Source of the DNA: an uncultured bacterium
Lineage (GTDB): Bacteria > Cyanobacteriota > Vampirovibrionia > Gastranaerophilales > Gastranaerophilaceae
Direction of reading: 5' to 3'
NCBI GenBank assembly: GCA_902788345.1
Contig: CADAJP010000001.1
Span: 153,795-217,794 of the forward strand
DNA length: 64,000 nt
The translations under genes were made by a program, and so were the position numbers. Positions 8,611 through 41,188 of the stretch are shown one piece after another. The notes beneath the pieces are model-generated. The model was not told where the DNA came from. It made no database searches and was given only the letters and a program-made list of their open reading frames with translations. Every line of letters begins with the position of its first letter. Position 1 is the stretch's first letter.

Positions 8611-8613
8611 ATA

Positions 8614-8700
8614 CGGAGAAGCGGGGATTCGAACCCCGGGTGGAGTCTCCCCCACAGCGACTTTCGAGATCGCCACCTTCAACCACTCGGACACTTCTCC
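8614..8700 (-). tRNA. tRNA-Ser (anticodon CGA)
   Basis: The reverse complement folds as a cloverleaf. The acceptor is GGAGAAG/CTTCTCC, the anticodon loop is CTCGAAA, the variable arm is long, and the T-loop is GGGGTTCGAATCCCC. No CCA is encoded. Confidence 0.9.
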
Positions 8701-8703
8701 AGT

Positions 8704-9426
8704 TTATTTATCTATAATAACTTTGTCTAAAAGTTGTATGTTTATCTTGTCTCCGGCTTTAGCCTTATAATATAACCCCGGAGTTACCAAACCGGCAACT
8801 GCACCAATTGCAAAACCTATCGGTAGTCCGATTGCAAAACCGCCAACAATAACTGCACCTGCAGCAACACCGATTCCGCATCCTGCTCCGATACCGATTG
8901 CACTGCCGCCAAGTGTTGAACCCAAACCTTTACCCAATGCATTTAATTTGCCTCTTGATAAAAAGTCCTTATTGCTGAATAATTTTGCTTTTATATCTAT
9001 TTGTTCGCCGTCAGGTAGTTCTATTCTTTTGAAATTTAAGTGAATTTTTCCGCTGCGGTTAAATGATTTTGGCCTTTCCACATTGCAAATCTCTGCAATA
9101 ACTTTTGTTCCGACCGGAAGTATCTGTGTGCCTTCTTCAGTTGATAAGCAATCAGGTAATATAAAAACAATTTCATCGCCTACATTTGCATATTTACTGT
9201 TAAAATTCTGTCCAAATGCAACTTGTAATGTGTTATATGAAACTATTTCAGTTTCTTCCGCACTTGAATTTACAATGTTTGTCGGTGTCTTTTTAGCCAG
9301 TTTTTTAGGCAATTTCATATGTTCAATACTGACACTTCCATTATTTTCATTTGCTAAAAGCATACCCGCAGGCATACTAAGATTTAAAAATAAACTACAC
9401 AATAATAAAGCAATAACTTTTTTCAT
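8704..9426 (-). CDS. Secreted protein with a C-terminal glycine-zipper membrane segment, unknown function
   Basis: ATG at 9426 has a GAGG upstream and gives MKKVIALLLCSLFLNLSMPAG, a signal peptide. The C-terminus is GLGSTLGGSAIGIGAGCGIGVAAGAVIVGGFAIGLPIGFAIGAVAG. Confidence 0.55.
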   Translation of the reverse strand: MKKVIALLLCSLFLNLSMPAGMLLANENNGSVSIEHMKLPKKLAKKTPTNIVNSSAEETEIVSYNTLQVAFGQNFNSKYANVGDEIVFILPDCLSTEEGTQILPVGTKVIAEICNVERPKSFNRSGKIHLNFKRIELPDGEQIDIKAKLFSNKDFLSRGKLNALGKGLGSTLGGSAIGIGAGCGIGVAAGAVIVGGFAIGLPIGFAIGAVAGLVTPGLYYKAKAGDKINIQLLDKVIIDK

Positions 9427-9542
9427 ATTATATAACCTCATAATTTGTAAACTTCAATTTAATAAACATATTTCAGATTTTTATATTTTTATTCCTCAGG
9501 GGTTCTCATCCCTCGCATATTTTGTTTTCAATTTTCTAAAAA

Positions 9543-9629
9543 ACAGAGAGGAGGGGATTCGAACCCCTGGTGGAATTGCTCCCACACAACCTTTCCAAGA
9601 TTGCACCTTAAACCGCTCGGACACCTCTC
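9543..9629 (-). tRNA. tRNA-Ser (anticodon GGA)
   Basis: In the reverse complement the acceptor is AGAGAGG/CCTCTCT, the anticodon stem is CAATC/GGTTG with loop TTGGAAA, the variable arm is long, and the T-arm is AGGGGTTCGAATCCCCT. Confidence 0.85.
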
Positions 9630-9644
9630 TTTAGTTTTTACGGT

Positions 9645-9851
9645 TTAATTATCTCTTAAATTTTGGATTTCGTCAAGCTGAAGCATCTCATCTGATTCAT
9701 AATATTCTCGAGTCTTTTCCATTTTTTCTATCTTTGCATCAGCCAGGCGTTCCAAAACTTTGGCATAATCCGTGCATTTTGCCCCTTTTATGCCTTCAGT
9801 TTCCATCTTTATGCTTCCGTCAGGAAGTAATCTTATTTTAATTTTACCCAT
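9645..9851 (-). CDS. DUF2997-like small protein
   Basis: MGKIKIRLLPDGSIKMETEGIKGAKCTDYAKVLERL...TREYYE matches my recollection of the DUF2997 pattern (I-x-pDG-x-v...G-x-x-G-x-x-C...EYY). It is the last gene of the operon. Confidence 0.55.
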   Translation of the reverse strand: MGKIKIRLLPDGSIKMETEGIKGAKCTDYAKVLERLADAKIEKMEKTREYYESDEMLQLDEIQNLRDN

Positions 9852-9857
9852 ATATTT

Positions 9858-11111
9858 TTACACCTCAATCGTCAGCAATATAGAATTGTCTTCCAATACT
9901 TCTTCCTTTTCCAAATGCAAATTCTCACTTTCAATTCTGTCCAGAATTTTTTTATAAGTTATTTCCTGTATATTCAAGCCATATTCATCATTCAAATCTG
10001 ATATTAAGCCTTCACATTCACTTTTATCTGTTACCCTCTCTATTACAAGATTATACGCCTGATTGTCAGCATCTTTTGTATAAGACATCTGCATGCCAAA
10101 TAATTCACAGGAAATTTTGTCATCTGTTTCTGAAATTTTTTTTGCACCGTGTTCAGTTAATGTATTCAACAAAACGCCCTTATCCGTATAATTTGTTTTG
10201 TATGTATAGGTTAATTCTGACTTGTTATCAGTAATTCTTAAATCTCTGCCGGCTTTTTTGTTCATTGCCGCAAACAGATGCTCTACTTCCCCTTTTAAAT
10301 GTGAAGATGAAATATTGCGTAGTTTTGCAGTATAATAATTATCTTTTAAACTCCATTCAATAATGTTACTTGACATTTTTAGAGGTGTTTGATTGGTAAT
10401 TTCATTAAAGTCATACCCAAAATTATTTAGTAAACTTTTAATTTCTTCAGGAGTTATGTTTGTTTTAATTTCAACCATTGCAAGATTTGAATCATCCATT
10501 CCTATATTAACAAGCGAAATTTTCTGTTCTGTTTCAAGAATGAATCTATTTGTGTAATAATCCTGATAATATCTGATGTTTTGCTTATTATATGTTGCTT
10601 TAATCTCTTTTTCAGAGGTTTTAACAATATTTTCAGCTTCACGCATTTTTAGTTCGGTAATTATTTGGTCTGCATCGGTATATTCGGTTATATAGTTGTA
10701 ATAAAAGTATTCTTCCGAATTTATATCGCGAACATTAACATTTTTTATCTTGTCTAAATTCTTGAATAACTCTTCTCCGTACTTTGGGACAATTTTGGCA
10801 GTATTTTCTGCTGATAATATTGCACAGCAATAACCGTCTATATACTTCCATTCAACATTCAGTCCGTTTTTAAAAGTATATTCAAATTCGCCAACCCTTT
10901 TAACTTCGTCAAATGCAGCCATTAATCTTGGGGCTTCACTTATGCGAAGATTAGTTAAAATTCGTATATTTCTCAGCGAAGAATAATTTGTTATCAAAGA
11001 TTTAAGTTTTTTATTTTTTATTTTATCAGCAATTTGTGCTAATGTTATTTTCTTTGCTGTGTCCGGACTGACTAAAAATGCAGTAGGGAATGCTGTTAGT
11101 GTAATTGACAC
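9858..11111 (-). CDS. Expanded, multi-module DUF1257-like protein
   Basis: GTG start with an AAAGGA Shine-Dalgarno. The C-terminal ~110 aa (..DEYGLNIQEITYKKILDRIESENLHLEKEEVLEDNSILLTIEV) is DUF1257-like. The N-terminal signature recurs four times. Confidence 0.5.
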   Translation of the reverse strand: MSITLTAFPTAFLVSPDTAKKITLAQIADKIKNKKLKSLITNYSSLRNIRILTNLRISEAPRLMAAFDEVKRVGEFEYTFKNGLNVEWKYIDGYCCAILSAENTAKIVPKYGEELFKNLDKIKNVNVRDINSEEYFYYNYITEYTDADQIITELKMREAENIVKTSEKEIKATYNKQNIRYYQDYYTNRFILETEQKISLVNIGMDDSNLAMVEIKTNITPEEIKSLLNNFGYDFNEITNQTPLKMSSNIIEWSLKDNYYTAKLRNISSSHLKGEVEHLFAAMNKKAGRDLRITDNKSELTYTYKTNYTDKGVLLNTLTEHGAKKISETDDKISCELFGMQMSYTKDADNQAYNLVIERVTDKSECEGLISDLNDEYGLNIQEITYKKILDRIESENLHLEKEEVLEDNSILLTIEV

Positions 11112-11128
11112 CTGTATTATCCTTTCTG

Positions 11129-12739
11129 TTAAAAATCAAGAGCTCTTCCGCCTCTGAAGGCATTTACATCATCCTGATTATCATTATTGTATTGCTCGTC
11201 AACAGGAGTTGCCGATACAGCTCTGACATTTGCCCAGTCCCTAAGCTCAAATATTTGTTCTTCCTGCGTTACTGATAAAGGTACAATAGTGTTAATTGTG
11301 TTTGTCAAATCTTCCAAAGTTAATGCTCTTTTATTGAAAAATGCTTCATACAATGAAGTTATTACAATCTGTTCTATTTCTGCGCCGACAAAACCTTCTG
11401 TTAATTGCGCCAGTTTTTTAAACAATGCATTATTTATTTGGATTTTACCGCTTACTTCAGGGGTTTTAATCCTTTTTGTCAAATGCAGTTTGAAAATTTC
11501 TTCTCTTTCCTTTTGCGTAGGCATATCTACAAAGAAAATTTCATCAAATCTCCCTTTTCTTAACAATTCGGGCGGGAGTCCGCTTATATCGTTTGCCGTA
11601 GCAATTACGAATACCGGTGCTGTTTTTTCCTGCATCCATGTAAGAAAAGTCCCAAAAATTCTTGAAGATGTTCCGCTGTCACCATTGGAATTTAAACCGC
11701 TTAAACTTTTCTCAATTTCATCTACCCACAGAATAGACGGAGATACTGCTTCTGCCGTTTTCAATGCCTTTCTCATGTTTTCTTCGGAACTGCCGACAAT
11801 TCCTGAAAAAATCTTACCGAAATCAAGTTTTAATAACGGCAACTGCCATGCGCTGCTCATTGCTTTTGCTGTCAAACTCTTACCGCAACCCGGAACTCCT
11901 GTAACAAGTACTCCTTTAGGGGCAGGCAAACTGTATTTTTTTGCCTGCTCTGACCAAGAGTTATTGCGTTTCATCAACCAGCTTTTTAAATTTTCAAGTC
12001 CGCCGATATCATCCATTTTTAAATCGGTCTTGATAAATTCGAGAATACCTGTTTTTCTTATGATTTGCATTTTCTCATTCTGAATTGTGTCCAAATCTTC
12101 TATGCTTATTTTCCCGTCATTTACCATTGCAAGAGCAAATGCATTTTCTGCTTCCTGAAGTGTAAGCCCGAGAGCTGCTTTGCATAATTTTTCCGAAGCT
12201 TCTTCATCAAGTTCCGATGAATCTATCTGTGAATTTTGGGTGACCATTCTGTCAAATTTAGCTTTTATATCTTCCAAAGTTGGCAATGGCATATCAAGAA
12301 CAGTAATTTCTTTCTGCATTGTGTCAGGTATAATCAGTTCAGGAGATATAAAAATAACATTCTTTCTAAATTTGTCAGTTTTTAATTTGCCGATTATATC
12401 TCTTAGGTGTCTTACAACATTGTAATCAACCTGACGACCTTTCACACCGAAATATACATGAAAATCACACATTACAAATACTGCGTTTTTTTGAACATCA
12501 TTTATAAAATCTATTGCTTTGTCAGGACTGTTTGTTCCTTCGATAACTTTGTCATTTTGAGTAAAACCTTTTGTTTGAGTCCATACAAAAACTTCTCTTG
12601 GGATTTTTATCAGTTTTTCTGATGCTGATAAACTTTTGATAAGTCCGAGTGCTCTATCTTCTTCATAGGTAGTAATGTATATGTACGGGAATCTTGCCCT
12701 GTATAATCTTGTTAATTGCGAAATAAATTTATTGTCCAT
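11129..12739 (-). CDS. AAA+ ATPase (classic CDC48/FtsH-clade AAA module) with a roughly 250-aa N-terminal non-ATPase domain
   Basis: Walker A is GVLVTGVPGCGKSLTAKA and Walker B is ILWVDEIEK. The second region of homology is ATANDISGLPPELLRKGRFDEIFFV. Confidence 0.85.
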   Translation of the reverse strand: MDNKFISQLTRLYRARFPYIYITTYEEDRALGLIKSLSASEKLIKIPREVFVWTQTKGFTQNDKVIEGTNSPDKAIDFINDVQKNAVFVMCDFHVYFGVKGRQVDYNVVRHLRDIIGKLKTDKFRKNVIFISPELIIPDTMQKEITVLDMPLPTLEDIKAKFDRMVTQNSQIDSSELDEEASEKLCKAALGLTLQEAENAFALAMVNDGKISIEDLDTIQNEKMQIIRKTGILEFIKTDLKMDDIGGLENLKSWLMKRNNSWSEQAKKYSLPAPKGVLVTGVPGCGKSLTAKAMSSAWQLPLLKLDFGKIFSGIVGSSEENMRKALKTAEAVSPSILWVDEIEKSLSGLNSNGDSGTSSRIFGTFLTWMQEKTAPVFVIATANDISGLPPELLRKGRFDEIFFVDMPTQKEREEIFKLHLTKRIKTPEVSGKIQINNALFKKLAQLTEGFVGAEIEQIVITSLYEAFFNKRALTLEDLTNTINTIVPLSVTQEEQIFELRDWANVRAVSATPVDEQYNNDNQDDVNAFRGGRALDF

Positions 12740-12766
12740 ACTGCCCTCTGCTTCTTAATATTAAAT

Positions 12767-13378
12767 TTATTTTACAATATTTTCTCCAAGATGTAAACAA
12801 AACTTGCTTTCTATTTCTTTAAAATCCCCCATTCCGTTGATTTCAAGTTTGCCGTCAGGTTTAATATGTACTTCTACTTTGTTTTTATAGTTTAAAATAT
12901 CTTCGGAAGTGTATTTGTCTGACAAAAATATATAATTTTGATTTGAGGAGCCAACCCAAGGTCTTGAAAGATCAAATTTTTCTTCTTCAAAACCTCCATC
13001 TATTAGTAAATCTATGTATTTTAATAAGTTTTCAGTACCTTTGTCTTTTTTATTTTTTAATTCTTCGTATGTATATCCGCTAAAGCATACAAGTGTCAGC
13101 TTTAAATCGTTTTTTATAAGCTGTGCCAGTTTTGATAATTCTGCACTCTGTTCAAACGGCTCTCCGCCAAGAAAAGTTACCCCTTCAATATTATTTTTCT
13201 CTGCTTTTATAATCTCAAAAAGCGATGAAACGCTATATGGTGTTCCTGCATCAAAGTCCCACGTTTGTTTTGCATAACAACCATGGCAATGCTTTTTGCA
13301 CCCCTGAACCCACAGGCAAAACCTCTTGCCCGGTCCCTCTGCTGTAGTATTTTTTAATATTTTATAAACTCTTATCAT
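12767..13378 (-). CDS. NrdG-type (anaerobic RNR activase family) radical-SAM activating enzyme
   Basis: LWVQGCKKHCHGCYAKQTW (GCxxxCxGC cluster motif) and FLGGEPF; 203 aa. Confidence 0.7.
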   Translation of the reverse strand: MIRVYKILKNTTAEGPGKRFCLWVQGCKKHCHGCYAKQTWDFDAGTPYSVSSLFEIIKAEKNNIEGVTFLGGEPFEQSAELSKLAQLIKNDLKLTLVCFSGYTYEELKNKKDKGTENLLKYIDLLIDGGFEEEKFDLSRPWVGSSNQNYIFLSDKYTSEDILNYKNKVEVHIKPDGKLEINGMGDFKEIESKFCLHLGENIVK

Positions 13379-14343
13379 TAATCAACGATTCTTTCGTTGT
13401 TTAGCCTTGGATTTTCTACTATTGCTTTTGAAGATCTGTCCACTGTAATAATATCTTTTATTTTTTCAATAAAATGATCTTTAAGTCCTGCAACTTTGCA
13501 AAAATCTTCTTTGGTTTTAAAAAAGCCGTTTATGTTTCTGTATTCTACAATTCTTTTTGCTTTTACTATATTTATTCCGGGAAGTGCGGAAAGTTTTTCG
13601 GCATTTGCTACATTAACATCAATTTTCCCGTCTTCTGTGTGCAGAATGTCATTCATTTCAACCAGGTCGTTATTTGCATTAGATTCTGCCTTTGTGCTTT
13701 CATCTTTTGTAGGCTTTTTATCAAGTTTATCTATATTAACAAGCGGCTCGCCGTATTCTGAATATACTACAGCATCAGGGGCGTATTCAGGTTCTTTATG
13801 CGTGTAATTATGCGTTGATTCAACTGTTTTATCAACATTTTCTTCTTTTTTACGATGTATAAATGTAAGCCTTAATATTCCTGAATTTTTATCAATATAT
13901 GAAAATAATGTATCAAAAAATGTATATTCATCAAAAACAGAACAAATATCATGCCAGACCTTATCAACATTTCCCACATTTTCCTTTGAAACTTCAAATG
14001 TTCTGAGTTCGGTCTTAATTCGTGATTCCGGCTGATCCATAACTACAATTTTTTTCTGTGCCGGAAAATATTTTGCAATGCAATGAACATTACTAAGCGT
14101 GTTTCTGTCTTTTAAAAATTCTTTTGGAACATTAGTATAACTTATTATTGATTCTTCCTGTTCTTTTTTCTTGGCAAATTCTATAAAAATCATACATGCC
14201 ATTGCCAGTATCAATAAGGTTAAATACAGCCACATTTTTTGAGGATGTTCGTGTATAACAGCAATAAAAAGGACAATCCATATTACATATATGTCAATTT
14301 TTGTGAATTTTCTTCTTTTTTTGAAACCAAGTTCTTCCCACAT
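13378..14343 (-). CDS. Membrane-anchored ComEA-like helix-hairpin-helix DNA-binding protein
   Basis: Two N-terminal TM helices. The C-terminus VNVANAEKLSALPGINIVKAKRIVEYRNINGFFKTKEDFCKVAGL is a ComEA-type HhH motif. The stop overlaps the next gene's start by 1 nt. Confidence 0.65.
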   Translation of the reverse strand: MWEELGFKKRRKFTKIDIYVIWIVLFIAVIHEHPQKMWLYLTLLILAMACMIFIEFAKKKEQEESIISYTNVPKEFLKDRNTLSNVHCIAKYFPAQKKIVVMDQPESRIKTELRTFEVSKENVGNVDKVWHDICSVFDEYTFFDTLFSYIDKNSGILRLTFIHRKKEENVDKTVESTHNYTHKEPEYAPDAVVYSEYGEPLVNIDKLDKKPTKDESTKAESNANNDLVEMNDILHTEDGKIDVNVANAEKLSALPGINIVKAKRIVEYRNINGFFKTKEDFCKVAGLKDHFIEKIKDIITVDRSSKAIVENPRLNNERIVD

Positions 14344-14410
14344 ATTTATATTTTAACCTAATTTAAAAAAAAATGATAATATTTAATATTATTTATGATA
14401 GGATTGGTCT

Positions 14411-18235: not shown

Positions 18236-19459
18236 CTATGTATTTATTTTATCACAAATATCTTTCCTGTATTTTATGTCTTTATATTCAAATTCTTCAA
18301 TTGCCTGTGATATTTTATGTTTCGCTCTTGTGAGAGTCGGAGCTGTTTTGGTTAAAATTAAAGAAGATGAATATACATTATTCCCGTTTAAATATGTATT
18401 ACAAAAATCGATGTCATAATCATTTGTGTTTTTTATATCGATTAGTGATGTATTTATTTTTACTGATACTGATGAACAGTTATTTGTTTTAATTTGTTCG
18501 TATTCATCTGAAAAATATCCGTTTATGCAGGAATTTATAACATTTAAAATATTATCCTCGCATAAGTTCAGAATTGCTCTGGCATCGTGCTCCTGCAAGA
18601 ATGGTTTTATATCCTGCACAACAAATCGGTCATCATCTGTCAGAGTACATTCAAGTCCTATAATTCCCAAATATGCACATGAATTAAATTCAAAATTATT
18701 TATAATTTTTTCTGCAAGCCCTTTAATTCTTTCCGATACGGTTTCATTAATTCTGTATTCGGGAGAGTAACAGCCTATGCCGTCTGTATATTGTCCGCTT
18801 TTATCAGCATTTGTAAATTTGAAATTCCTGACTGAACCAAACGGGATTGCGCTGTATCCGTCAGAAATAAAATAGTATGTGCAGTTTGTTCCGTACGGGA
18901 ATTCCTGTATAAGTACATCTGTTTCGCCATTTGCAAATATTCTGTCAAGATAAGATTGTGCCTGCTTTATTGTGGTACAGATTGTATTTTGTTCTTGTGC
19001 CGATTGTTCTGTTTGCGTAATGATAAGCGGAAATGCTGCAGTTGTCAGATAGTCAATTGCCTGCGAATATTTAGAGAAGATTGCGAACTTTGGACACTGC
19101 GCTTTATTTTTGTATAAAAACTTTTGGCAGTTTGCTTTGTTTAAAAAGAATAAACAGGTTTTTCTTGACGGAGCAAATATATTTTGTCCGTTTGACTGGA
19201 AAAATTCAACTATATCGGATTTAAAAGCTCTTTTTGATATGGGAATTGTCAGAGTTATTTCATTTTCAAGAGCGAATTTTAACAATGATGTTATGTCATC
19301 ATCTCTGATATCTACACACTCATAGTAGTCAGTTTTGTATTCGCAGGAATCAGTAATAAATATTTTACCCGTATTTTCGTATTCATTCAGTTTTTTTGCC
19401 AGAGCCGATGCAACTGCCCCGTTCCCTACTATAAGAATGTTAATACTATCATTATTCAT
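18236..19459 (-). CDS. PurD-like ATP-grasp protein, divergent with degenerate motifs
   Basis: ILIVGNGAVASALAKKL aligns with PurD VIGNGGREHALAWKL. DGIGCYSPEY aligns with GGMGAYSPAP. DHKR is replaced by NFKF. Confidence 0.45.
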   Translation of the reverse strand: MNNDSINILIVGNGAVASALAKKLNEYENTGKIFITDSCEYKTDYYECVDIRDDDITSLLKFALENEITLTIPISKRAFKSDIVEFFQSNGQNIFAPSRKTCLFFLNKANCQKFLYKNKAQCPKFAIFSKYSQAIDYLTTAAFPLIITQTEQSAQEQNTICTTIKQAQSYLDRIFANGETDVLIQEFPYGTNCTYYFISDGYSAIPFGSVRNFKFTNADKSGQYTDGIGCYSPEYRINETVSERIKGLAEKIINNFEFNSCAYLGIIGLECTLTDDDRFVVQDIKPFLQEHDARAILNLCEDNILNVINSCINGYFSDEYEQIKTNNCSSVSVKINTSLIDIKNTNDYDIDFCNTYLNGNNVYSSSLILTKTAPTLTRAKHKISQAIEEFEYKDIKYRKDICDKINT

Positions 19460-19588
19460 AGGTGTATTATACTACATAATTTGAATGATTTTGTTAAGAA
19501 ATTTTAAATTTTTTTGATTTTAGGTGGTATAATTATGACAAACAGATATTAATTATTAAATAATAACTACAGTAGAAAGGTTGTATAT

Positions 19589-19828
19589 ATGGCAGGATTA
19601 GTTAATTTATTATCAAATGTATTTCAAGCACCGCAAGTTACTCAGGCACCTCCTGTAGTTAGAGAAGCTTCAAATCCATACGGAAATAATCCGTTTGTTA
19701 ATTATAGTGCCAGAAGTTTTCACACTCAATATTATGCTCAAAACAGACCTGTCAAAGGCGGATACTTTGCAGGTTATTATAACGGAAAACAAAATATAGT
19801 AGGCAGAAGGTTATTTGTGGAAGTTTAA
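19589..19828 (+). CDS. Small hypothetical protein containing an NPF motif
   Basis: Preceded by GAAAGG and an extended -10 (TGGTATAAT), and followed by a terminator. Contains NPYGNNPFVNY. Confidence 0.45.
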   Translation: MAGLVNLLSNVFQAPQVTQAPPVVREASNPYGNNPFVNYSARSFHTQYYAQNRPVKGGYFAGYYNGKQNIVGRRLFVEV

Positions 19829-19852
19829 TTATTTCTCAAAGAAAAGGATTTT

Positions 19853-19885
19853 AAAAACGGCATACTTTTAAGATATGCCGTTTTT
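19853..19885. terminator. Bidirectional terminator
   Basis: aaaaaCGGCATActtttaagaTATGCCGttttt. Confidence 0.75.
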
Positions 19886-19902
19886 GTTATCTTTTTTTAT
19901 TT

Positions 19903-21144
19903 TTATTTATCGCTTATATAACCATTAATTGCCGAATAAGCTGCAACATAAGGACTTGATAGATATATAAATCCTTTTGTGTTTCCCAGTCTTCCGATAA
20001 AGTTTCGGTTTTGAGTTGTTAAGCAAACTTCCCCGTCTGCAAGTATTCCTGCGTGAATTCCAACACAAGGACCGCACCCCGGAGGCAAAATTGTTGCATT
20101 CGCATCAATAAATGTTTCAAGCAAGCCTTCTTTTAAAGCTTGTTTATATACAGTTCTTGAAGCAGGACAAATAAGCATTCTGACGCCTTCATGGACTTTT
20201 TTGTCTTTTAGGATTTTTGCAACTACACGCATATCTTCAATTCTGCCGTTTGTACATGTTCCGACATATACCTGATTAACTTTTACATCATTGAGCTCTT
20301 TTGCAAGTTTTGTATTATCGACTGTGTGAGGGCAAGAAACTGTATGTTCTATTTTTGAAGCATCAATTTCGATGACTTTTTCATAATTGGCATCTTCATC
20401 AGGCGTTATTGTCTTAAATTTATCACCTCTGCCTTTTTCTTCAAGATATGCTTTTGTTTTTTCATCAGCGACAAATAAACCGCATTTTGCTCCGGCTTCC
20501 ACAGCCATATTCGCAATGGTAAATCTGTCTGCCATTTCCATATTATCAACGGTTTCTCCGCAAAATTCCAAAGCTTTGTATGTTGCACCGTCTGCTCCTA
20601 TCATTCCGATAAGGTGCAATATTAAGTCTTTTGCGCAAATTCCCTCTCTAAATTTTCCGGTTACAACAACTTTAAATGTTTGAGGAACTTTGAGCCATGT
20701 TTTACCTAAAGCCATTGCAACAGCAATATCGGTTGAGCCCATTCCTGTTGCAAAAGCTCCTAAAGCACCTGATGTGCAGGTATGAGAATCTGCACCGACT
20801 AGTATTTCACAAGGGTTTACAAAACTTTCTACAAGTCTTTGATGGCAAACACCTGAGCCAACTTCAGACAAAACTGCACCATAATCTTTTGAAAAATCTC
20901 TCAAGGTTGTGTGCATATTTGATAGTTCTTTTCTCGGACTTGGCGATGCGTGGTCAATAAATAATATTGTGCGTTCAGGATTAAATAACTTATCTTTGCC
21001 AAGCTTTTTAAATTCTTCTACTGTCAGCGGACCTGTGCCGTCTTGTACTGCACAAACATCAACATTTGCTATAACAAGTTCCCCTGCTCTGACATTGTGA
21101 TCAGAGTGCATTGATATTATTTTTTCTACTAAAGTTTGTCCCAT
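19903..21144 (-). CDS. leuC: 3-isopropylmalate/homoaconitate dehydratase large subunit (aconitase family)
   Basis: VGADSHTCT, GTCTNGR and PGCGPCVG cluster ligand motifs. No small subunit lies adjacent. Confidence 0.85.
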   Translation of the reverse strand: MGQTLVEKIISMHSDHNVRAGELVIANVDVCAVQDGTGPLTVEEFKKLGKDKLFNPERTILFIDHASPSPRKELSNMHTTLRDFSKDYGAVLSEVGSGVCHQRLVESFVNPCEILVGADSHTCTSGALGAFATGMGSTDIAVAMALGKTWLKVPQTFKVVVTGKFREGICAKDLILHLIGMIGADGATYKALEFCGETVDNMEMADRFTIANMAVEAGAKCGLFVADEKTKAYLEEKGRGDKFKTITPDEDANYEKVIEIDASKIEHTVSCPHTVDNTKLAKELNDVKVNQVYVGTCTNGRIEDMRVVAKILKDKKVHEGVRMLICPASRTVYKQALKEGLLETFIDANATILPPGCGPCVGIHAGILADGEVCLTTQNRNFIGRLGNTKGFIYLSSPYVAAYSAINGYISDK

Positions 21145-40940: not shown

Positions 40941-40944
40941 AAAT

Positions 40945-41033
40945 CGGAGAAGGTGGGATTTGAACCCACGGTGCAGGTAACCCCACACAACACCTTAGCA
41001 GGGTGCCGCCTTAAGCCACTCGGCCACTTCTCC
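40945..41033 (-). tRNA. tRNA-Ser (anticodon GCU)
   Basis: In the reverse complement the acceptor is GGAGAAG/CTTCTCC, the anticodon loop is CTGCTAA, the variable arm is long, and the T-arm is GTGGGTTCAAATCCCAC. Confidence 0.9.
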
Positions 41034-41188
41034 ATTTGCGGCATAACCTTTTGCCAAGATTATACAATCATGCTATCATAAAAAAAATATTTTGAAAAGT
41101 CTTTAAAAAAAAATTTTGCAGGATATAATATAGATAGTGATTTTGGATTATTTGCCTGTTTTAAACACTGGCAGAAAGGTTATAAATT

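Follow-up and report, generated by a model that had tools for sequence, protein, structure and literature searches.

We analysed a 64,000-nucleotide (nt) stretch of DNA, called the window below, from an uncultured bacterium of the family Gastranaerophilaceae (Cyanobacteriota; positions 153,795 to 217,794 of contig CADAJP010000001.1, assembly GCA_902788345.1). Five genes on its minus strand encode a helix-hairpin-helix (HhH) protein, a radical S-adenosylmethionine (SAM) enzyme that resembles the activase NrdG, an AAA+ ATPase, a 417-amino-acid (aa) protein and a DUF2997 protein. It is well supported that these genes form a conserved module of several proteins, of which the window contains one copy gained by horizontal transfer, and not an accessory of ribonucleotide reductase. 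Equally well supported is the make-up of the module: its core unites DUF2997 with an AAA+ ATPase of the Ycf46 type and a protein of the DUF1257 type, and to this core a dedicated radical-SAM enzyme similar to NrdG and to PFL-AE, the activase of pyruvate formate-lyase (PFL), has been added. The subtype referred to here as clade A has, again with good support, at least one further accessory protein of the HhH or tetratricopeptide repeat (TPR) type, which ends in the same C-terminal tail, GR-h-h-[DE]-h (h, hydrophobic residue), as the ATPase. We propose that this tail may act as an address and that the radical-SAM enzyme may attack a protein of the module. Our single overall estimate covers the identity of the module and this mechanism jointly, and on that combined claim our confidence is moderate.

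The five-gene locus and its orphan activase

The coordinates and gaps that an initial annotation had given for the five open reading frames (ORFs) were all reproduced from the sequence. Read along the minus strand in the order HhH, radical-SAM, AAA+, 417-aa protein and DUF2997, the same-strand ORFs are separated by -1, 27, 17 and 6 nt. The tRNA-Ser reported behind the operon is a tRNA-Ser(GGA) at 9544-9630. The genes, their borders and two segments of the radical-SAM enzyme are as follows.

13378..14343, minus strand: ORF of the HhH protein, 321 aa, predicted to be membrane-anchored (ComEA-type HHH_3), ending in the module tail
12767..13378, minus strand: NrdG/PFL-AE-like radical-SAM enzyme, 203 aa, clade A
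13277..13300, minus strand: CxxxCxxC cluster motif of the radical-SAM enzyme (C27 KKH C31 HG C34), read from the sequence
12770..12937, minus strand: C-terminal extension of the radical-SAM enzyme, aa 148-203 (~55 aa), containing the beta-hairpin VEVHIKPDGKLEING, delimited by alignment with the genome's own NrdG
11129..12739, minus strand: Ycf46-type AAA+ ATPase, 536 aa
9858..11111, minus strand: 417-aa protein
9645..9851, minus strand: DUF2997 protein, 68 aa
9544..9630, minus strand: tRNA-Ser(GGA), one border of the insertion site (ARAGORN)
14344..14410, no strand: divergent intergenic region between the operon and aroA, 67 nt, with promoter-like sites for the operon

The promoter-like sites in the gap between operon and aroA lie on the minus strand at 14417-14388 and 14379-14350 and are consensus matches only. 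No terminator-like sites were found on the minus strand inside the operon. The locus is surrounded by housekeeping genes (pnp, aroA, surE) in a source genome of 1.85 Mb in 21 contigs that is 98.8% complete.

The assignment of the radical-SAM enzyme to the NrdG type stands. In scans with hidden Markov models (HMMs) the protein scored 135.6 bits against TIGR02491 (NrdG), which exceeds the curated cut-off of 126.1 bits, and it matched Fer4_12 at 2.3e-41. The cysteines C27, C31 and C34 are invariant in 49 members of its subfamily, as are a GGEP motif and an N-terminal GPGxR. The latter corresponds to DGxGxR, the glycine-loop/peptide-contacting motif of glycyl-radical activases. The AlphaFold2 model (predicted local distance difference test (pLDDT) 93.4; predicted template-modelling score (pTM) 0.88) had its best solved structural match in PFL-AE with SAM and peptide (3CB8; E 1.4e-8, TM-score 0.57 in Foldseek). 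QueE ranked second at 2e-4, viperins came after it, and PFL-AE was also the sole relative by sequence in the Protein Data Bank (PDB). The enzyme is thus like NrdG and PFL-AE in its CxxxCxxC, GGEP and N-terminal GPGxR motifs and in its small partial-barrel radical-SAM fold. Unlike these activases, it comes without a cognate glycyl-radical enzyme and has DUF2997, DUF1257 and AAA+ proteins as fixed neighbours.

Its identity to the canonical NrdG of the same genome is only 37%. Whereas canonical NrdG is compact (~150-180 aa) and ends soon after the GSSNQ region, the module enzyme adds the extension of ~55 aa, which is missing from the genome's canonical NrdG and is shared by all aligned members of the subfamily (49, and 102 in the extension alignment). 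In the model this extension consists of a strand (148-151), a short helix, a beta-hairpin (168-182) and a second helix (186-199), with a pLDDT of at least 87 up to about residue 190. The hairpin (consensus Ev.I.pDG....tG) resembles the N-terminal hairpin of DUF2997 in a profile comparison with hhalign (probability 89%, E 2e-6, 23 columns).

The initial annotation had described the activase as an orphan, with neither NrdD nor any other glycyl-radical enzyme nearby, and matches to such enzymes in the genome were indeed restricted to contigs C3 and C6. On C3, nrdD (19232-21016) is directly followed by the canonical nrdG (183.7 bits); on C6, a 788-aa PFL-like glycyl-radical enzyme is directly followed by a third Fer4_12 activase. 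Because each of these enzymes adjoins its own activase, the module enzyme is an orphan: nrdD does lie elsewhere, yet the activase of the window is not its only partner, and relatives keep the linkage to the cassette. The wider subfamily gives a similar picture. NrdD is missing from 16 of 20 genomes that carry it, the Gly_radical domain (PF01228) from 13 of 21 carriers (20 others plus the window genome), and both from 11 of the 20 other carriers, including a 9.3-Mb Streptomyces and a 10-Mb Actinomadura. Since so many carriers have neither, the database name 'anaerobic ribonucleoside-triphosphate reductase activating protein' is wrong for this subfamily.

Linkage in the genus, the family and across phyla

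The initial annotation had proposed a survey for radical-SAM enzymes beside such cassettes, and the linkage was found in the genus, in many phyla and on plasmids. Of 24 other species of the genus, 20 have this paralogue of NrdG. All 20 loci fetched from the genus hold the same cluster in the same order, two of them in part only at contig ends, and in 18 of the 20 the module stands beside aroA. Identity to the window proteins across the genus is listed here by protein.

AAA+ ATPase: 74-82%
Radical-SAM enzyme: 62-68%
DUF2997 protein: 62-75%
417-aa protein: 31-46%
HhH protein: 24-42%

Three genomes of the genus deserve separate mention. One (L024 7600-9000, genome G015) has an insert of ~1.4 kb between the radical-SAM and AAA+ genes, with a reverse-strand ORF of 190 aa and an ORF of 112 aa that by eye looks like a helix-turn-helix regulator. 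In another (L029 55-1342, genome G009), the match to the aroA that neighbours the module is broken into three pieces, each in a different frame, which reflects either a pseudogene or an assembly error. Genome G088 contains two copies of the radical-SAM subfamily (C4:177468-178070 and C1:80107-80661); the second is 49% identical to the window protein, which suggests a second, independently acquired module.

Outside the genus, the linkage was first met in a relative with a 6.1-Mb genome (L075), in the order AAA+ - DUF2997 - radical-SAM - DUF1257. A census led by an alignment of the L075 enzyme and restricted to one genome per species yielded 80 loci. They come from more than ten phyla, among them Chloroflexota, Planctomycetota, Verrucomicrobiota, Actinomycetota (Streptomyces, Actinomadura, Dactylosporangium), Myxococcota, Acidobacteriota, Bacillota, Cyanobacteriota, Thermodesulfobacteriota and archaea. 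Neighbours were called by HMM searches of six-frame ORFs, so that the counts depend on the HMM thresholds and on flanks of 8 kb. AAA+, DUF2997 and/or DUF1257 lay within 8 kb of the radical-SAM gene in 49 of the 80 loci, in 48 of the 49 on its strand, and all three partners were present in 23 of the 80. Where at least 3 kb of flank was available on both sides, at least one partner was found in 30 of 47 loci. The commonest order was DUF1257 - DUF2997 - radical-SAM - AAA+, with DUF2997 as the commonest immediate upstream neighbour, and iterated HMMs raised the number of loci with DUF2997 to 44. The remaining neighbours include a large helical/WD40-like protein in Obscuribacterales; Microcoleus showed none. 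In two clade-B loci (L075 4455-7466; L097 8546-11068), a helical-repeat/WD40-like protein of 840-1003 aa directly follows the module or the radical-SAM gene.

The trio of AAA+, DUF1257 and DUF2997 genes had been called a conserved cyanobacterial cassette, and it does recur: Rhizobium phage L338C has it, and so does a cyanobacterium that is photosynthetic (L085); in the collection of DUF1257 loci, the phylum was marked only by a control match in Synechococcus. Relatives of the trio occur in phages and a satellite. Carriage of the radical-SAM subfamily itself by phages was considered and rejected, as the phage matches had the length of canonical NrdG.

A maximum-likelihood tree of the enzymes separated clade A (support 100/99) and clade B (96/95) from the canonical NrdG rows, with an unresolved backbone. 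Clade A comprises the window genus, a Melainabacteria relative, a Planctomycetaceae metagenome-assembled genome (MAG), Neobacillus, Paenibacillus and a Clostridia MAG, and clade B comprises 29 rows from many phyla. This mixing of phyla within both clades indicates horizontal transfer. The module is also found on plasmids, including a conjugative plasmid of Rhodococcus aetherivorans with the order AAA - DUF1257-like - DUF2997 - HhH - radical-SAM, where the DUF1257-like protein is annotated as hypothetical and the radical-SAM enzyme as '4Fe-4S single cluster domain'. On the Bacillus thuringiensis plasmid pBTKNU07-01 (L166 7841-9546) the AAA+ gene falls into two frames that overlap and is missing from the (incomplete) gene table of the record; a sequencing error or a pseudogene with a frameshift is the probable cause. 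Strict aerobes such as Streptomyces and Actinomadura are among the carriers.

At family level the distribution is patchy, with the module in 13 of 60 genera and its presence varying even within genera. In two module-less genera of the family tRNA-Ser(GGA) lies directly beside aroA, at distances of 66 nt and ~500 nt, and in three other genera the module keeps its gene order in fetched flanks that contain neither aroA nor tRNA-Ser, aroA being on another contig. As its flanking landmarks adjoin each other where the module is missing, and as it occupies other sites elsewhere, the cassette of the window is a 4.8-kb insertion between tRNA-Ser(GGA) and aroA. No att-like direct repeats were found flanking it. 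Taken together, the module behaves as a mobile accessory system. The window contains three tRNA-Ser genes in all (CGA 8613-8701, GGA 9544-9630, GCT 40944-41034). Between the first two lies a 245-aa ORF (8704-9441) that has a hydrophobic segment at its N-terminus and a C-terminus that is hydrophobic and rich in Gly; two species of the genus have it at 72-75% identity, again near the module.

The shared C-terminal tail and the module proteins

The segments of the other four proteins that are discussed in this section are listed first.

14167..14310, minus strand: two adjacent hydrophobic segments of the HhH protein, aa 12-59, predicted transmembrane hairpin
13447..13626, minus strand: HHH_3 domain of the HhH protein, aa 240-299 (Pfam PF12836)
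13381..13395, minus strand: HhH protein tail ERIVD
11132..11155, minus strand: AAA+ C-terminal tail RGGRALDF, after an acidic linker
9861..10229, minus strand: DUF1257-like C-terminal domain of the 417-aa protein, aa 295-417 (hhalign)
9774..9794, minus strand: G-x-x-G-x-x-C loop of DUF2997 (G20, G23, C26)

The description of the first gene product as a ComEA-like HhH membrane protein holds for the domain and the hydrophobic segments and fails for orthology to ComEA. Residues 240-299 match HHH_3 (PF12836) at 8.7e-17, and both ComEA models stayed below their cut-offs (TIGR01259, 50.8 versus 152.35 bits; TIGR00426, 49.6 versus 53.1 bits). Kyte-Doolittle windows exceed 1.6 at aa 12-16 and again at aa 35-41; K+R outnumber D+E by six to two in the N-terminal flank, and AKKK follows the second segment. 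By the positive-inside rule, this predicts an N-in/C-in topology in which the HhH domain and the tail would be cytoplasmic.

The tail links the HhH protein to the ATPase. Among the 20 orthologues of the genus, all 20 end in [EQ]GR[IVL][IVL]D[FWIL] though their bodies are only 24-42% identical, and the ATPase tail RGGR[AT]LD[VFL] is invariant in 19 of 19 complete orthologues of the genus. Of the 3769 ORFs of the genome, the HhH protein and the AAA+ ATPase are the only two that end in R-h-h-D-(h); a shifted control gave none. A tail common to AAA+ and accessory proteins is also present in a Clostridia MAG and in the relatives listed below.

Neobacillus: AAA+ RGGRAVDF; accessory protein AGRMVDF
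Paenibacillus: AAA+ RGGRSVDF; accessory proteins VRVIDF and GRVVDY
Planctomycetaceae MAG: AAA+ RGGRRIDF; accessory protein KGRRVD
Melainabacteria relative (L152): AAA+ RGGRTIEF; accessory proteins TGRTIEF and MGRKIDW
Rhodococcus plasmid: AAA+ RGGRTFEF; accessory protein PGRRLEF

In clade-A relatives, the tailed accessory proteins are either TPR proteins or HHH_3 proteins, the latter often having membrane segments at the N-terminus. All six module-bearing genomes of the family that were tested have HHH_3 proteins in the module and nowhere else, and eight of nine module-less genomes of the family have none. The window genome has a ComEC homologue and no other ComEA-type HhH protein. The shared tail together with this pattern of presence and absence rules out the HhH gene as a genus-specific bystander. 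The AAA+ tail, the ComEA scores below cut-off, the predicted cytoplasmic HhH domain and the co-occurrence with the module argue that the HhH protein is a component of the module and not a competence ComEA. It is like ComEA in its C-terminal HHH_3 domain and in its membrane anchoring, and it differs from ComEA in the predicted hairpin of two transmembrane segments, in the tail of the AAA+ type and in occurring almost only with the module within the family. Two tandem HhH paralogues lie 5' of the radical-SAM gene in one species of the genus (G018; L018 7612-9410) and in a genome of another genus (G210; L176 7585-8778).

The assignment of the third gene product as an AAA+ ATPase was borne out by PF00004 (6e-29) and by phrog_8638, which covers residues 3-518 and hence its full length with 487 bits; AAA_lid_3 was found as well. 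It is 37-39% identical to the AAA+ proteins of cyanobacterial cassettes, with 39% over residues 3-503 (tblastn). It is built from a family-specific N-domain and one ATPase domain of the Cdc48/VAT-D2 type with Walker A and B motifs, and its closest solved relative is VAT (9.5e-52), the ATPase domain being nearest to D2 of VAT/p97. The likeness to Cdc48, p97 and VAT extends to the conserved short C-terminal peptide behind a disordered acidic linker. In p97 the C-terminal tail recruits cofactors with PUB or PUL domains, and proteasomal ATPases use HbYX tails. The module tail GR-h-h-D-h is unrelated to HbYX or DDLYG, and in contrast to recruitment of the p97 type, the partners in the module carry a copy of the tail and not a tail-binding domain. 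Further differences from Cdc48, p97 and VAT are the single ATPase domain, the family-specific N-domain and pore loop 1, which reads GIVG in place of the KWVG of VAT.

The 417-aa protein had been called DUF1257-like, and this can be upheld only for its last ~115 residues, at a moderate level of support from profile-profile comparison. Aligned with hhalign to a DUF1257 alignment of 19 sequences, it matched positions 14-130 of 135 with a probability of 88% (E 3.1e-6, 104 columns). The Pfam model lent no support: direct detection of DUF1257 (PF06868) failed with the whole protein and with three pieces, the isolated C-terminal domain included, at E-values up to 10, and the protein had no match in Pfam, NCBIfam, PHROG or PADLOC. 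PF06868 also went unmatched in the window genome and in those sampled from its family. Canonical DUF1257 proteins start with MSHF, whereas the 417-aa protein and its clade-A relatives start with MS[IV] followed by a hydrophobic peptide; the near-invariant N-terminal MSH motif of DUF1257 is thus missing from it. Its own N-terminal peptide, MSITLxAxPxAFLxxP, is invariant yet disordered. Behind this peptide the AlphaFold2 model (pLDDT 76.6) shows four beta-alpha-beta4 domains, which pair up by similarity as R1 with R3 (E 1.3e-14) and R2 with R4 (E 3.9e-11); the protein is thus a duplicated A-B unit. The clade-A relatives are single A-B units of 141-244 aa. In two species a 330-aa form (L020 7315-8304; L021 4349-5341) lacks exactly R3 and represents a natural domain-deletion variant. 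Foldseek searches of the PDB with the 417-aa model gave a TBP-like topology with probabilities of 0.9-0.99 but low TM-scores. As the matches to TBP, ACT-domain proteins and AdoMetDC were all of this kind, we took them as a resemblance in topology and discarded them as fold assignments.

DUF2997, in turn, was confirmed directly. The 68-aa protein matches PF11211 at 7e-12 with 45.5 bits, above the gathering score of 24.1, and is the sole copy in the genome. Its conserved features are a hairpin, the G-x-x-G-x-x-C loop and a helix. The loop is kept in all but four of 50 module-linked homologues, the exceptions being the three lowest-scoring DUF2997 matches and L119, which differs at the first Gly. 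A weak match of the protein to the NCBIfam model TsoC, a selenoprotein with an 'NEPxGxxU motif' (E 0.002, below cut-off), places GxxU of the model on GxxC of the loop and is a possible hint that the cysteine might be redox-active.

Proposed mechanism, rival readings and significance

We infer that the activase may act on one of the operon's own products, as the initial annotation had suggested. The shared tail would be an address: the tails of the ATPase and of the accessory protein may bind one receptor site, located in the AAA+ N-domain or in the DUF1257-type repeats. Binding of the tail would bring the HhH DNA binder, anchored in the membrane and facing the cytoplasm, to the ATPase, by tethering or by delivery. 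The radical-SAM enzyme would join this complex through its C-terminal hairpin, a putative copy of the N-terminal hairpin of DUF2997. In the manner of an activase, it might then abstract a hydrogen atom from a module protein instead of from a classical glycyl-radical enzyme, and such a radical attack on a module protein seems to us the most likely chemistry. The G-x-x-G-x-x-C loop of DUF2997 would be the best candidate target, because no other glycine motif is shared by all variants and because DUF2997 is the commonest immediate upstream neighbour of the enzyme. The Gly-Arg of the tail, which is limited to clade A, would be the second. A search for a motif like the RVxG[FY] of glycyl-radical enzymes offered no further candidate: the YDIGF of DUF1257 is not kept in this subtype, and the tail Gly is not universal.

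Several observations weigh against the proposal. No partner lies within 8 kb in 31 of the 80 subfamily loci. The loop is equally conserved in 32 cyanobacterial and phage (one phage) homologues of DUF2997 without a radical-SAM gene in the fetched flanks, which measured ~1.5 kb in most cases, which indicates that its conservation is independent of the enzyme; loop differences between radical-SAM-linked and radical-SAM-free homologues were considered as a pointer to the substrate, and no difference was found. The tail Gly is not strictly conserved (tails of L151 and L158), clade-B tails (FVPLQLD...) have no Gly, and the idea of a tail receptor is drawn from a sequence pattern only. Pore loop 1 of the ATPase does not have the usual aromatic residue, so that processive unfolding is not assured. 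Finally, the aerobic carriers argue against a stable, oxygen-sensitive glycyl radical and thus favour a transient radical or an irreversible modification. In its boldest form, the proposal would make the enzyme the first glycyl-radical-type activase with a substrate other than a glycyl-radical enzyme, placing a transient C-alpha radical or a modification on DUF2997 or the tail and thereby gating an AAA+ machine that tail mimicry directs to membrane-anchored DNA-binding proteins; this extended claim we regard as doubtful.

Other readings concern the chemistry of the enzyme and the identity of the HhH protein. That the radical-SAM enzyme is a redundant second activase for the NrdD or the PFL-like enzyme of the genome, with an incidental position in the cassette, is hardly credible. 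It passes the NrdG equivalog cut-off and both of these enzymes exist in the genome, but they adjoin activases of their own, the subfamily is linked to the cassette across many phyla, 11 of 20 other carriers have neither NrdD nor the Gly_radical domain, and canonical NrdG does not have the C-terminal extension. It is unlikely that the enzyme works on a nucleotide or small molecule, as QueE and viperin do, and that the other proteins use or sense the product. QueE and viperin are the next-best structural matches, and there are weak HMM matches to QueE and to prokaryotic viperin, but PFL-AE is clearly the best structure (1.4e-8 against 2e-4 or worse), the enzyme scores far higher with the NrdG model than with those for QueE and viperin, and GPGxR is invariant. 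We attach next to no weight to the view that the HhH protein is an ordinary competence ComEA that merely shares the operon. It is the only ComEA-type protein of a genome with a ComEC homologue, but it falls below both model cut-offs, its HhH domain is predicted to be cytoplasmic from the two transmembrane segments, it ends in the AAA+ tail, HhH or tailed proteins flank the radical-SAM gene in other phyla, and eight of nine module-less relatives have no HHH_3 protein.

Two further readings address the biological role. The module may be a defence against phages or plasmids in which incoming DNA is sensed or retained by the membrane-anchored HhH protein, with the AAA+ ATPase and the radical-SAM enzyme as transducer and effector. 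This reading is compatible with the anatomy proposed above, and we entertain it tentatively. The patchy distribution (13 of 60 family genera, differing within genera) and the different insertion sites favour it, as do carriage on plasmids, including a conjugative one, the mixed phyla in the clades, a weak similarity of the AAA+ protein to the IetA/IteA defence ATPases and the fact that phages and a satellite have relatives of the AAA+/DUF1257/DUF2997 trio. Against it, PADLOC-DB 2.0.0 returned only generic AAA+ matches (IetA/TRIP13), weak viperin matches and, for the HhH protein, a KwaA match at chance level (E 0.02), and neither DUF2997 nor the 417-aa protein matched any model; 20 of the 24 other species in the genus keep the locus, which here has housekeeping genes around it; and the ycf46 operon of cyanobacteria is stress-induced and (p)ppGpp-dependent (PMC13683863), which speaks for physiology over immunity. 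Just as tentatively, the module may be a stress-responsive protein-remodelling or checkpoint machine, with a role like that of the cyanobacterial ycf46 operon and acting on DNA-associated proteins at the membrane. The ATPase is 37-39% identical to its counterparts in cyanobacterial cassettes, inheritance in the genus is stable, the operon of S. elongatus is induced by severe oxidative stress and darkness and its Ycf46 interacts with KaiC (PMC13683863), and the reported duf2997-ycf35-fed7 cluster ties the pair to another Fe-S protein (PMC4284462). The patchiness and the plasmid carriage would, however, be unusual for a core stress system.

The ycf46/ycf35/DUF2997 genes of cyanobacteria and plastids are the nearest known relatives, with a homologous AAA+ protein, the same DUF2997 loop, a DUF1257-type domain and an origin in the same phylum. 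Our module differs from them in the added radical-SAM enzyme and tail-tagged HhH protein, in the four-domain form of the 417-aa protein, which the Pfam model does not detect, and in its host, a relative with a small genome. In the literature searched, full text turned up only five papers that mention DUF2997 or DUF1257; no paper linked these families or Ycf46 to radical SAM, and none described the combination of activase, AAA+ and HhH proteins or the module; the statement of the initial annotation that such a linkage was not known to be described therefore agrees with the literature searched. On these grounds, and as no PADLOC model matched the system, we rate the module as an undescribed system built of parts from known superfamilies.

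The name 'anaerobic ribonucleotide reductase activating protein' mis-names an enzyme family in hundreds of genomes, including those of strict aerobes without such a reductase, and the subfamily must have a different substrate, whether a protein or something else. Its partners DUF1257/Ycf35 and DUF2997, whose conservation spans phages, cyanobacteria and plastids, have had no functional assignment for decades. The shared tail, the DUF2997-like hairpin and the co-occurring HhH DNA binders provide concrete, testable handles, and cultured carriers are at hand in Neobacillus dielmonensis, Paenibacillus aquistagni, Streptomyces gossypiisoli and the conjugative plasmid of Rhodococcus aetherivorans. 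Should the proposal of a radical-gated AAA+ ATPase prove true, it would also assign a mechanism to the orphan Ycf46, Ycf35 and DUF2997 genes, because the same core persists without the radical-SAM enzyme in cyanobacteria, plastids and phages.

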